DNA of 12,661 nucleotides from Candidatus Altiarchaeota archaeon (lineage in GTDB: Archaea; Altiarchaeota; Altiarchaeia; IMC4; QMZM01): positions 1 to 12,661 of the forward strand of contig JAFGDV010000018.1 in assembly GCA_016931955.1 (NCBI GenBank), written 5' to 3'. Shown piece by piece: positions 1 through 3,001 of the stretch. A model generated the notes under the pieces. That model was not told the origin of the DNA and did not search any database. It worked only from the letters and a program-made list of their open reading frames with translations. A program made the translations under genes and the position numbers. Every line of letters begins with the position of its first letter. Position 1 is the stretch's first letter.

Positions 1-294
1 GGTATGAACTTACAAAGTCGGCAAGTATGAGGCATTCATCTGCGACTTCAAAGTCGCAGTACAAGAAAGTGCCATGCACTTTCTGTACGCAAATTACATA
101 GTAACTTGCTGTATTCTGCCGACTTTGTAATAAAGGCATACAACAGCAAGACCTACCGGATAGAAACTCCTATACAGTTCTGGCAGGGTGCGGAAGAGCG
201 TGAACACACCAGAGTGAACATCACCATCGAATTCGAAGTCAACGGAGAAAACAAAAAATATAAAATACCCGTCGATACCTACTTCCTTGGTTAG
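1..294 (+). pseudogene. 3' part of a hypothetical protein gene interrupted by the inverted-repeat element (in-frame TGA at 28-30)
   Basis: Without 13-129, frame 1 reads GMNL|IKAYNSKTYRIETPIQFWQGAEEREHTRVNITIEFEVNGENKKYKIPVDTYFLG*, a beta-rich, protein-like sequence. The ORF track's TTG start at 106 lies inside the element. The gene probably begins upstream of the window or at ATG 4. Confidence 0.5.
13..127. mobile_element. Putative MITE (IS630/Tc1-mariner-like ends), 115 bp, highly structured
   Basis: Perfect terminal inverted repeats CAAAGTCGGCA (13-23) / TGCCGACTTTG (117-127), flanked by TA at 11-12 and 128-129. The interior forms four hairpins (27-39, 40-59, 59-88, 89-109). Removing 13-129 (117 nt) restores an open frame. 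Confidence 0.65.
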
Positions 295-776
295 ATCTCT
301 TCTTGCAGTATTTCAGCTAACTTATCCTCAACGTCTTCTTCTCTGGCCCGCTTTTTTAGGTAGGGTCTGTCTATATGCTGCTCATAACCCCTCAAGAGAA
401 ACTCAGCATGATCACAGTCTCGTTCAGAATTCCAGAACTTACAGGCACACAATCTGTCCACAATCAAGTCCTCCACGCTCACTACGCTGATTTTTTCTTT
501 TACCCCCTCCAACTCAAGCTCTTTTATTCTCTCCTTCGTAGTCGAACCCACGATATCAATTGCAACATCTTCGTTGTAGTAGATGTCGTTTTTTTCTTTG
601 AATCCAAGTTCCTCCAAGAGAGAAACAAGTTCACCCCTATCCGCAAGCAGATCAAGGTCTATGCTCTCCCGTTCACCGGCGGTATATAGTTCCACCGCAG
701 AACCACCTACCAGTATCGGCGTTTTCTTCAGTCTCCTGCTTAATTCGCTCAGAATAAGGTATTTTCGTTTAATCAT
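291..776 (-). CDS. Nucleotidyltransferase-fold protein (DUF6036-like, Pol-beta superfamily)
   Basis: 161 aa with ILVGGSAV...SIDLDL (hGG/GS + DxD), a third acidic residue in AIDIV, and a C-terminal SVEDLIVDRL...D motif typical of this family. Confidence 0.8.
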   Translation of the reverse strand: MIKRKYLILSELSRRLKKTPILVGGSAVELYTAGERESIDLDLLADRGELVSLLEELGFKEKNDIYYNEDVAIDIVGSTTKERIKELELEGVKEKISVVSVEDLIVDRLCACKFWNSERDCDHAEFLLRGYEQHIDRPYLKKRAREEDVEDKLAEILQEEI

Positions 777-780
777 TTCC

Positions 781-912
781 TTACGTCCAGTCGACGTCGA
801 TGCTTTTTATGTTTCCCTTTTCATCGAATTTAACATACTTCTTGATTCTGAGTTTAACCACTTCTATCAGTGCCGCTACCTTCGCCCTATCCCTTGGTTT
901 CCTTCTGACCAT
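781..912 (-). CDS. Small basic hypothetical protein (43 aa), not in ORF track
   Basis: ATG at 912-910 translates MVRRKPRDRAKVAALIEVVKLRIKKYVKFDEKGNIKSIDVDWT*. The TAA is 4 nt before the nucleotidyltransferase ATG. Purine-rich coding-strand composition matches the other genes, and a TATA-like AATATTTATC sits about 25-35 nt upstream. Confidence 0.7.
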   Translation of the reverse strand: MVRRKPRDRAKVAALIEVVKLRIKKYVKFDEKGNIKSIDVDWT

Positions 913-982
913 AACATATAATCCTTGGTATCCGACAGATAAATATTCACCATTTCTTCTTGTAAACGTAAATATTAGGGTG

Positions 983-1900
983 ATGGATTCAGTCGAAGCA
1001 GAAGCTTATGGTACGGGAGTTATCGTGGATGCTGGTAGTCGAGGCGCAGTGTTCGCCTTAGACTTGAAGGCGACAGCGTCCGCAAAAATCCTCGAAGATC
1101 ATAAAAAGATAAAGACCCAAGACAAAACAGCGGAAAAGATAGCGAAAAAGGTCCTGGATCTGCTCGGATACACTTACAGAGTCGAAGTCAAAATCAAGAA
1201 CGAGATCCCGCTAAGAGTAGGATTCGGCGAAAAAGAAGCTGTTGCGATCGCTACGGCGCTTGCGGTCACTGGGGCCCTGGCGAAAAAACACGGCTCAGTG
1301 AATGAACTGAGGATAGACAAATACATGAAAGACCAGTTCATGATCATAGGAGACAAACTGGTGGACAAAAAAAAGCTGATGGATTTATGCGTTGACTCAG
1401 GAATGCGCCTGGATCGGACCTATGCAAGCCTCTACGGGGGATTCAGTGTAGCGGACAACAACAAAAGAAAGGTGCTACGCCATGGAGAGATGGAATCCCT
1501 GCATTCAATCATCCTGGTCCCAGAAAAACCTAAAAAGAAGAGCCTGAAGGATATGAGGGTATTCGACGGACAACTGCAGATGATCTGGGATGAGGCTTTA
1601 AAAGGCAACCTGAACACTGCGATGAACATGAATTCGATGCTCTACAACAGTGAGACAACAAGAAAAATGCTCAACGCAGACGCCTTAGCTGTCTCAATCT
1701 CCAGAAAAGGCGGCCTGGTAGGCTTCACCAGAAAGGAGGAAAGGATAAAAGACATCATGAAAGCCCTAGAAGAAGAGGGAAAAATCCTGATAAAAAAAGC
1801 GATGAACGAAAAAGCATGGGCTCTGATTAAACCAAAAAAAATCTATAAGACTCACGAGTTCCTCGAACTGAAAGGCGGCCAAGAACACCATTGGCTATAG
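983..1900 (+). CDS. Archaeal shikimate kinase-like GHMP-fold protein with degenerate catalytic motifs (305 aa)
   Basis: N-terminus EAEAYGTGVIVDAGSRGAVFALDL, the EIPxxxG motif and YASLYGGFSVADN match archaeal AroK. The start is reassigned to ATG 983 because 800-982 is largely the antisense of the small upstream gene plus intergenic sequence. Confidence 0.7.
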   Translation: MDSVEAEAYGTGVIVDAGSRGAVFALDLKATASAKILEDHKKIKTQDKTAEKIAKKVLDLLGYTYRVEVKIKNEIPLRVGFGEKEAVAIATALAVTGALAKKHGSVNELRIDKYMKDQFMIIGDKLVDKKKLMDLCVDSGMRLDRTYASLYGGFSVADNNKRKVLRHGEMESLHSIILVPEKPKKKSLKDMRVFDGQLQMIWDEALKGNLNTAMNMNSMLYNSETTRKMLNADALAVSISRKGGLVGFTRKEERIKDIMKALEEEGKILIKKAMNEKAWALIKPKKIYKTHEFLELKGGQEHHWL

Positions 1901-2962
1901 ACCTTCAGGGACGATTGAGCCCCTCTGCAAGGGCACCAGTTCATCAGCTGAGAGAGATGTCTTATATCTTGTTCCCTGACGTGTGCCCCTAAGCATAAGG
2001 ATTTTTTCAACACGAGGACCGACAAGAAAACGATGAGTATCCCATTCAGGCACGATTTTTCCGTCCAAGCCACAGTCCTTCGAGATCCTCTGGACTAAGA
2101 CATAAGGATTCATGTGCTCCAGGAAGTCGGCTATGATCACAGCATATTCGGTCATGCTGATGGGCCTGTACCTGCCAGAGTAATACTCTTTCGCCAGGCT
2201 TGTATCGTGCATCACCAGTAATGGATAGAGTTTCACTGCATCGATCCCTGACTCAGATATTATCTTCGCTGTTTCTATCATCTCGGAGGGTGTTTCATAG
2301 GGCAAACCCATGATCAAGAACGCGAGCGACAGAATACCTCTTTTATGACACTCTTTCGCGGCGTGGAGCAATTCACCGAAGCCATGATGCCGCCTGGTTT
2401 TTTCTTCAGTGTGGAAGTGAGGAGACTGTTGGCCGAGTTCAAGCCAGACCTCAAAGCCCTGATCAACGTATCCCTTAAGGAGGTCAAGCACTTCCATGGG
2501 AAGACAATCCGGTCTTGTCCCGATAGACATGCCTATGACATCAGGATGGTCTAAGGCCGCATCATATATCCTCCGAAGGTCCTCTACTGGGGCGTAGGTG
2601 TTTGTGCCAAAGGCGACATAAACAAGAGCCTTGTCTCCAGCACCCTTCTCCTTGTAGTAGTCCACTTGGTGCGCGACCTGGCTTCTTATGTCTCTTCCTA
2701 TGACCGGGCGGAAGCTTTCGTAGGTGAACTGTCTCGCGAAATTAGGGCAGTATATGCAGCCTTCTAAAGAAAGGCGGCCATCCCAGTTCGGGCACGTGAA
2801 GCCAGCATTCATCGGAACCTTAAAGACCTTGCAACCATGTGTTCTCCGAGAATAGGCCCCGTATTGGGCGTAGAGGAAGCCCTCCTCGTAGAGCTGGTCT
2901 ATTACTCCTCTGTCAATTTCTCTCTCGATCGGTGTGCCCCTAATCACACCCCTAGATGCCAT
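1895..2962 (-). CDS. TIGR01212/YhcC-family radical SAM protein
   Basis: AGFTCPNWDGRLSLEGCIYC (CX11CX2C), TNTYAP, GMSIGTRPDC, WLELGQQS and IMGLPYET are all characteristic of YhcC-like proteins. Confidence 0.92.
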   Translation of the reverse strand: MASRGVIRGTPIEREIDRGVIDQLYEEGFLYAQYGAYSRRTHGCKVFKVPMNAGFTCPNWDGRLSLEGCIYCPNFARQFTYESFRPVIGRDIRSQVAHQVDYYKEKGAGDKALVYVAFGTNTYAPVEDLRRIYDAALDHPDVIGMSIGTRPDCLPMEVLDLLKGYVDQGFEVWLELGQQSPHFHTEEKTRRHHGFGELLHAAKECHKRGILSLAFLIMGLPYETPSEMIETAKIISESGIDAVKLYPLLVMHDTSLAKEYYSGRYRPISMTEYAVIIADFLEHMNPYVLVQRISKDCGLDGKIVPEWDTHRFLVGPRVEKILMLRGTRQGTRYKTSLSADELVPLQRGSIVPEGL

Positions 2963-2985
2963 AATAGTATTAGGGGATTACATGC

Positions 2986-3001
2986 ATAAAGGATATATAT
3001 C
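2986..3001. promoter_or_regulatory. Palindromic TATA element shared by the divergent radical SAM and pstS1 genes
   Basis: GATATATATC (2992-3001) is a perfect palindrome centred about 34 nt from both ATGs (2962 and 3031). A purine-rich BRE-like ATAAAG precedes it on the + strand. Confidence 0.5.

Follow-up and report, generated by a model that had tools for sequence, protein, structure and literature searches.

BOX, Correia, RUP and Rickettsia palindromic elements (RPEs) are small structured repeats, sometimes modular, that lie near gene starts and can alter expression; BOX, Correia and RUP have terminal inverted repeats and/or target duplications (TA for Correia), and RPEs are translated in frame. 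The palindrome-associated transposable elements (PATEs) of Haloquadratum walsbyi are described as having no terminal inverted repeats, near-terminal palindromes with the longer distance at the 5' end, a targeting sequence of 4-5 nt and ends shared with IS605-type transposons (PMC3119063). For IS608 of Helicobacter pylori, the published layout has one cleavage tetranucleotide 19 nt to the 5' side of the left hairpin foot and another 10 nt to the 3' side of the right one; the left tetranucleotide belongs to the host, each site is recognised by four guide bases that lie 5' of a foot, and a change of the left guide shifts the target (PMC3201880). Tyrosine transposases associated with repetitive extragenic palindromes (REPs), the RAYTs, are characterised as domesticated and typically single-copy (PMC3333891, PMC2817692). 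Here, we analysed a 12,661-nt stretch of DNA (the window), which is positions 1-12661 of contig C29 in a 1.55-Mb, 46-contig Altiarchaeota-like assembly (G000), and our data indicate that it very probably opens inside a PATE, its first ~129 nt being the left part of a ~160-nt non-autonomous element of the IS200/IS605 type with the minus strand as the top strand. A literature search, judged from listings, found no report of such elements in Altiarchaeota; the listings also gave none joining Altiarchaeales and MITE (miniature inverted-repeat transposable element), Altiarchaeum and IS200 transposase, or IS605 and start codons.

The initial annotation of the window had described an exact 14-nt inverted repeat enclosing a chain of hairpins, and both readings are borne out by the sequence. 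Positions 10-23 (TTACAAAGTCGGCA) are the exact reverse complement of 117-130 (14 nt, 100%, spacing 93 nt), the hairpins at 40-59 and 64-84 are perfect, and those at 27-39, 59-88 and 89-109 can also be read where they had been placed. Window positions 1-140 fold with -53.8 kcal/mol on the plus strand (z -7.4) and -58.7 kcal/mol on the minus strand (z -9.0), and 0 of 200 shuffles did as well in either case; with the exact inverted repeat and the hairpins, this shows that the features are real and beyond chance. Repetition is also hinted at by DNA run X1, in which the summed word depth was 310-577 over positions 1-135 against 43.5 in the flank, a figure that does not amount to a copy number.

A search for dispersed copies was positive, with many in the source genome and in its relatives. 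The core of what we call type A is 100% identical on the contig ends of C1, C2, C15, C16, C17 and C43 (left 45-78 nt) and of C30, C31 and C32 (right 25 nt); a further copy, of 95% identity, is internal to contig C44, and 39 of the 92 contig ends of G000 bear the family or ends of related insertion sequences (ISs). In all left-hand copies, the nine bases GGTATGAAC... are preceded by ATCAACAACC, an 8-bp hairpin and TATGAACTTA. The hairpin reads CCACACCC-TAAA-GGGTGTGG in the plus sense, the full module (ATCAACAACC-CCACACCC-TAAA-GGGTGTGG-TATGAACTTA, plus sense) occurs at 15 places in G000, and the flanks diverge only upstream of it. The repeat therefore extends ~38 nt beyond the inverted repeat, and contig C29 breaks inside the element. 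The ends that had been proposed, a TA-bounded unit reading CAAAGTCGGCA...TGCCGACTTTG, thus cannot be kept: the TA at 11-12 lies inside the repeat, and the nine bases upstream of the inverted repeat, which had been assigned to a host gene, are repeat sequence. The same module heads four further variants, B to E, which have a different interior and terminate in ...TTGTAATG, with type A terminating in ...TTTGTAATAA. The C44 copy (positions 2821-2966) is a decayed type A copy of 95% identity, which has lost 12 nt in the left arm of the closing helix and 1 nt in the guide region and is probably immobile.

Copies of the family are insertions, as filled and empty sites reveal for two copies other than that of the window. 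One genome, G017, carries a type A copy in the context GGGA-AAT-[CAAC...TTTGT]-AAT-AAACAG, and the orthologous empty site in G013 reads GAGG-AAT-AAATAG. Likewise, a 282-nt variant in G000 has the end of a rib gene on one side and the riboflavin synthase ATG on the other, and it is absent from the orthologous sites in G002, G004, G008 and G011, where the two genes nearly abut. The insertion junction is (A)AT and not TA, and the true ends differ from the inverted repeat. On the minus strand one end reads TACAAAG... and the other ...GTTGTTGAT; neither is an inverted copy of the other, so the element has no terminal inverted repeats, and the 14-nt repeat has one arm at an end and the other inside, beside the right-end hairpin. 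For the window's own copy, no empty site or left neighbour was found, the alignment of relatives starting at about window 933, and the DNA contigs of run X1 gave no joints. Directly upstream of the 282-nt variant lies another short repeat (C42:28357-28424; L012:1232-1299) with two hairpins, GAGGGGCT..AGCCCCTC and TCGCATTATAGTGCGA, and with 80-90% matches at several loci of G004 and G008.

Read on the minus strand from position 129 down, the window's element is a long form of type A that covers 1-129, where the contig start cuts it off; the right-end hairpin and the last ~29 nt lie beyond position 1. This delimitation is based on six other contig ends, where identical left parts are joined to the missing module, on the C44 copy, and on the filled and empty pair, which fixes the ends. 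Just outside, at 130-133, the minus strand carries the target and left cleavage tetranucleotide TTAT (ATAA on the plus strand), which is host sequence because the empty site in G013 retains AATAA; all four type A ends captured in G000 have TTAT as their flank, and so do 16 of 17 copies in relatives. A guide-like AATA (112-115; TATT on the plus strand) comes after the initial 14 nt of the left end and 5' of the hairpin domain; next are two accessory hairpin modules found in long copies only (59-88 and 89-109; minus strand), hairpin 1 (40-59; CTGCGACT-TTGA-AGTCGCAG on the minus strand), which is the left-end subterminal palindrome of all type A copies, and a conserved ATGAATGCC (39-31, minus strand). 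Accessory modules related to these, with other stem sequences, occur in the G017 copies and in the C42 variant of G000. The edge of the right-end module occupies 1-9 of the minus strand, with a guide-like CATA at 3-6 and the first two bases of the right-end hairpin at 1-2. The two arms of the 14-bp closing helix, named in the plus sense and assigned to neither strand, are the 3' arm at 117-130, which on the minus strand comprises the opening 13 nt of the left end and the final target base, and the 5' arm at 10-23, on the minus strand directly 5' of the right-end guide and hairpin. Since this helix pairs the start of the left end with the stretch 5' of the right guide, the folded top strand sets both ends of the element side by side. 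Every variant shares this minus-strand layout of flanking tetranucleotide, left end TAC and a hairpin domain 18 nt in; the right-end hairpin is followed by 8 nt to the end (...TTGTTGAT), and in short type A copies the distance from end to foot is 18 nt on the left vs 8 nt on the right, and compensatory changes preserve the hairpins of both ends.

The ends of these repeats are shared with ISs that carry a transposase gene, tnpA. The Y1 transposase domain (PF01797) was found in 9 of the 22 genomes of the taxonomic family and at 17 places in one of them, G016 (Pfam E 1.3e-29 for one copy), where six of the copies are IS200 elements of 677-701 bp. At their left end, flanking TCAT is followed by TACACTTTTCGCAAGG, ATA and the hairpin CTGCGGCC-TTTA-GGCCGCAG..., a sequence that the 'right end' of the G000 variants B to E shows in reverse complement; the right end of the IS200 elements consists of GATA, an 8-bp hairpin and a final AGGTTCAT. 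The 20-nt left hairpin is identical in four type A copies and six IS200 copies of G016, and one type A copy abuts the right end (...TTTATT) of another IS200 subfamily. Five contig ends of G000 (left of C4, C6 and C7, right of C33 and C45) show the 3' end of tnpA (on C6, ...KFFRTVGNVTADVVQAYIADSHHGWHFPNQTTLTHF and stop), then a right-end hairpin and then a terminal ...AAGTTTAT. Left ends of type E stand on the right of C6, C12, C14 and C44 and on the left of C13. TnpB (PF07282) had 0 matches in G000. An origin from DDE transposases of the IS4/IS5 type (PF01609; 0 matches in G000, present in 12 of the 22 genomes) was considered and rejected, as the junctions do not fit.

Several other IS200-like pieces and small inserts were noticed beside these ends. 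A second IS200-like right end, ATA-CCGCCGAC-TTCA-GTCGGCGG-ATATTTAT, stands at the left ends of C14 and C26, preceded by a different tnpA-like C-terminus (...QTNLLNYT and stop), and a near copy of its hairpin adjoins a type A copy on C32. One PATE copy on contig C31 of G016 (L045:620-650) has a GC-rich mini-hairpin of ~27 nt (TGCCCAGCAGGGCATGCCC...) inside its right-end module, and two of the G016 IS200 elements (L096 and L097) exceed the other four in length by 24 nt and have a similar insert directly ahead of the tnpA frame. These mini-inserts recall the small repeats described as hitting PATEs in Haloquadratum (PMC3119063).

Guide and target vary together. Among the left ends of G000, the guide AATA goes with a TTAT flank in 4 copies, GATA with TCAT in 11 and GGTA with CCAT in 6, and all 21 of 21 fit a rule by which the first guide base pairs with the second site base and the second guide base with the first site base (Fisher p 8e-5 for the GATA-TCAT vs GGTA-CCAT classes). 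Right ends of five element types fit as well, with CATA-TGAT in the family studied here and GATA-TCAT and AATA-TTAT in the ISs. Within G016, one identical hairpin is accompanied by aata/TTAT in the type A PATE and by gata/TCAT in the IS. That the flanking tetranucleotide is host sequence is further seen at riboflavin synthase, whose ATGG is present in orthologues without the element. The family thus offers a natural series of guide variants with matching changes of target, whereas the retargeting described for IS608 was achieved by engineering (PMC3201880).

The fold is conserved beyond the window, and covariation was found when 19 type A copies from 7 genomes were aligned. Three helices are common to all copies and comprise 30 pairs, in which 91.3% of cells are paired, vs 30-48% when the partners are slid; in 9 of the 30 pairs both partners have changed, and none of 500 shuffles attained these values. 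Hairpin 1 has such changes at 4 of 8 pairs (94.1% of cells paired), and the closing helix has compensatory changes at 2 of 14 pairs (86.6% of cells paired), its variants CAAAGTCGGCA, CAAACTGGCA and CAAAGATGGCA each having a matching partner. These compensatory changes suggest that the closing helix aids transposition. Ten of the 19 copies are short (104-131 nt) and have no counterpart of the hairpins at window 59-109, which are therefore optional modules, and relatives do not preserve the small hairpin at 27-39, whose minus-strand ATGAATGCC is conserved as a single strand.

An exact-pattern scan of species genomes matched only metagenome-assembled genomes (MAGs) of Candidatus Altiarchaeota/Altiarchaeales, and a pattern scan of viral contigs with the right-end module gave 0 matches. 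By BLAST, left module and core are present in 16 of 40 relatives; complete type A copies in relatives measure 104-157 nt. Of 60 further genomes sampled from the phylum, 17 contain the hairpin-module pattern (0 matches for the reversed control pattern), namely 12 of 21 of the same taxonomic family, 1 of 1 and 4 of 21 of two other families, and 0 of 12 of the two families outside the order; the hairpin stems of the module differ among genomes by paired changes. No open reading frame (ORF) is conserved in the repeat family, the frame being interrupted both in the window and in short copies.

Taken together, a repeat that is multicopy, inserts at new sites, keeps its helices, shares its ends with tnpA-bearing ISs and matches its guides to its targets is, in our judgement, very probably a PATE. 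We infer the single-strand excision and integration, and the TnpA that would act, from the known mechanism of the IS200/IS605 family. A Y1 (HUH) TnpA that is encoded by full-length IS200 elements and acts in trans would bind the hairpins, and pairing of the guide bases would direct it to the tetranucleotides for cleavage and targeting; the top strand would be excised and then pasted 3' of another TTAT. The 'cloverleaf' would be this folded top strand, in which the 14-bp helix joins the start of the left end to the stretch beside the right-end hairpin. The initial interpretation is partly supported on this account: a mobile structured archaeal repeat had been proposed, and a dispersed, non-coding, structured and mobile family is what we found, but its boundaries, its TA duplication and its in-frame host gene did not survive. 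No Rfam family matched the window at gathering score; the kind to which the element belongs, the PATE, is already known.

A number of observations weigh against the PATE assignment or leave parts of it less sharp. G000 has no complete tnpA, only 3' fragments at contig ends, which suggest that the transposase genes are present but collapsed in the assembly, and none of the genomes looked at yielded a tnpA-bearing element with the family's own right-end hairpin. The guide rule is looser in relatives: among 31 copies of the B to E type, found with a scan pattern that fixed guide base 1 as G (one locus, L108, was dropped as a likely chance match), 23 are fully Watson-Crick at the two positions, a single G-T-type mismatch is seen in 7 and an A-C mismatch in 1 (L133); L049 adds another A-C mismatch. 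Type A copies in relatives obey the rule strictly in 15 of 17 cases, and the two that break it are L022 and L043. In long copies, including the window's, two accessory hairpins intervene between AATA and the canonical hairpin, so that the guide does not stand directly at the foot of that hairpin. Counts of G-T vs A-C do not clearly pick a strand (12 on the plus vs 17 on the minus strand), and the (A)AT common to both junctions fits a 2-3 bp target duplication and a duplication-free insertion alike.

Two other readings follow from the way in which the window was initially annotated. The repeat had been linked to IS630/Tc1-mariner, as a TA-duplicating MITE with the 14-nt inverted repeat as its terminal repeats, and its exactness, the TA on both sides in the window and the multicopy nature of the family would agree with this. 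Such an origin is nevertheless extremely unlikely: the left arm lies ~38 nt inside the repeat and is not terminal, the left junction reads ...A/ATCAAC without TA and the right junction GTA/AT, the empty site joins at (A)AT, and DDE_3 (PF13358) has 0 matches in G000 and matches in 3 of the 22 genomes of the taxonomic family. We are almost certain that the element is not an in-frame palindromic insertion in a protein gene, translated or interrupting, in the manner of RPEs. The arithmetic of that proposal is right, in that removal of 117 nt joins ATG AAC TTA to ATA AAG GCA in frame, and the frame from ATG 4-6 meets a sole stop, TGA 28-30, and is otherwise open to 294; moreover, some G017 copies are open from the element's ATG to TAATAA. 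Against this, ATG AAC TTA belongs to the repeat, ATGAACTTA being conserved repeat sequence in 18 of 19 aligned copies, the contig starts only 3 nt before the ATG, and short copies have a stop in a hairpin loop. The supposed downstream host protein, a 54-codon frame at 130-291, has no relative in 21 genomes of the taxonomic family and only a Pfam match below the cut-off.

The remaining alternatives keep the structure and alter its meaning. A non-mobile structured RNA family, either a plus-strand 5' leader or a minus-strand small RNA that ends in a hairpin and U-run, homogenised by gene conversion, would account for compensatory changes that conserve helices, for sister variants directly upstream of genes with a Shine-Dalgarno-like GGAGGTG, and for a last minus-strand hairpin followed by UUGUUGAU and a U-rich flank, with TTTATTA preceding the element. 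We regard it as very unlikely in view of the filled and empty sites between close genomes, the 100% identical copies at unrelated loci, one copy in an unrelated short frame and another beside a tRNA gene, the ends common with tnpA-bearing ISs, and the lack of an Rfam match: Rfam 15 gave 0 matches in the window at gathering score and, with E up to 1, none on the element in L001, L012 and L031. Two metatranscriptome runs from the study behind the DNA data placed nothing on window 1-800, and no RNA data set was listed for window 1-3000, a result that speaks neither for nor against expression. An RNA-level function on top of mobility is conceivable. There is also a very slim chance that these are domesticated palindromes resembling REPs and bacterial interspersed mosaic elements (BIMEs), served by a single-copy RAYT and not by IS200 transposases; the repeats are indeed abundant and modular, and the lineage has Y1 enzymes, but the Y1 genes are multicopy (six of the 17 in G016 are identical) and sit inside ~680-bp elements with their own ends and a flanking target, which is the behaviour of IS200 and not of a lone RAYT. 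Two further candidates were rejected: a bulge-helix-bulge intron, because the closing helix is a perfect 14-bp duplex with no bulges, and an integron attC site, because copies are dispersed before housekeeping genes, with no cassette arrays.

The PATE family and its transposase-bearing relatives have a peculiar relation to start codons. In reverse complement, the targets TCAT and CCAT read ATGA and ATGG, so that variants B to E and the full ISs often stand flush with start codons of the opposite strand. This terminal ATG opens an ORF of at least 125 aa in 13 of 17 G000 copies, the frame stays open through the 54 codons fetched in 18 of 27 copies in relatives, and it has at least 131 codons in 5 of the 6 G016 IS copies; the genes with sister variants or full ISs at their start include those for riboflavin synthase, a radical SAM protein and an aspartate carbamoyltransferase-like protein. 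As G000 holds 16,103 ATGA and 13,623 ATGG sites, the target sequence alone does not explain this placement, and selection against insertions within genes is the simplest added factor. A Shine-Dalgarno-like GGAGGT(G) occurs 3-4 nt 5' of the closing-helix arm in 9 G000 copies, which are all the copies that reach that far (7 counted by script, those on C12 and C42 by eye), and in 10 of 15 evaluable copies of relatives. The closing helix would bring this motif to ~12 nt from the host AUG. Type A has no GGAGGT(G) and does not target ATG. We tentatively suggest, while thinking it less likely than not, that the IS200/IS605 lineage is a start-codon homing system with two guide bases as its address, that its miniatures are portable structured leaders for translation initiation, and that type A is a retargeted offshoot (AATA to TTAT) without the Shine-Dalgarno motif. 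If this were true, the outward-facing GGAGGTG and the closing helix would keep the invaded gene translated. In any case, the placement at start codons raises the testable question of how riboflavin synthase and the other invaded genes stay expressed.

Downstream of the element, the window holds the 54-codon frame (130-291) and then the next real gene, which encodes a DUF6036 nucleotidyltransferase on the minus strand (291-776, Pfam). This protein has 161 aa (Pfam E 1.1e-8), and its match to AbiEii-like proteins is weak. Together with a 43-aa ORF (781-912), the gene suggests a small two-gene module on the minus strand (291-912), which looks strain-specific because relatives align to the window only from ~933 on. 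A tRNA search of the window found none. In the Rfam scan of L031, one tRNA above gathering score and two far-sub-threshold rows at chance level were all off the element; this tRNA gene (G017:C72, 54.5 bits), with a TATA-like box of its own, follows a type A copy on the downstream side at a distance of ~60 nt.

The family explains assembly breaks in G000 and in related Altiarchaeota-like assemblies, and it also explains false extensions by ORF callers and false small ORFs at gene starts, examples being the 130-291 frame of 54 codons and gene starts that were placed ahead of the true ATG. Two other kinds of repeat were seen at the contig ends of G000. A mosaic of hairpin repeats, unrelated in sequence to the family studied here, holds GAATTC-centred palindromes, GGTTGATAAGGG... 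and CCCTTTCTTT...AAAGAAAGGG, and stands at assembly breaks on the right of C3, C24 and C28, the left of C27, C37, C44 and C45, and both ends of C10 and C46. Low-complexity, coding-like tandem repeats end the contigs C5, C12, C25, C33 and C41 on the left and C38 on the right.

Compared with known systems, the Altiarchaeota element differs from BOX, Correia, RUP and RPEs in having neither terminal inverted repeats nor a TA duplication and in not being translated in frame. With REPs, BIMEs and RAYTs, as these are described, it shares abundant intergenic hairpins related to the ends of IS200/IS605 elements, Y1 HUH enzymes and mosaics; unlike them, its lineage has multicopy Y1 genes in complete ISs, the two ends of the repeat are distinct, and its target is defined (PMC3333891, PMC2817692). 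The likeness to IS608 is one of layout as described, the Altiarchaeota elements being known from sequence alone, and it comprises subterminal hairpins with cleavage at a distance (19/10 nt in IS608 vs 18/8 nt here), a 5' target tetranucleotide outside the element, a 4-nt guide 5' of the hairpin foot, and guide variants that go with different targets, in Altiarchaeota naturally so; the targets differ, TTAC and TCAA in the published work vs TTAT, TCAT, CCAT and TGAT in Altiarchaeota, and the window's element has no gene (PMC3201880). The closest match is with the H. walsbyi PATEs, which, by their published features, are likewise too short for a transposase, have no terminal inverted repeats but palindromes near both termini, a longer distance from end to palindrome at the 5' end, a 4-5 nt targeting sequence at the 5' side, ends in common with transposase-bearing elements and highly homogeneous multicopy types (PMC3119063). 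Set against that account, the present hosts are Altiarchaeota-like MAGs of another phylum; the partner is a tnpA-only IS200-type element of ~680 bp and not mainly of the IS1341/TnpB types; the left terminus forms a long helix with the stretch beside the right hairpin; internal hairpins are optional; and sister variants stand flush on start codons (PMC3119063). The element thus represents a new PATE family that is ordinary in kind, with an instructive series of guides and targets and with sister variants whose affinity for start codons is unexplained.

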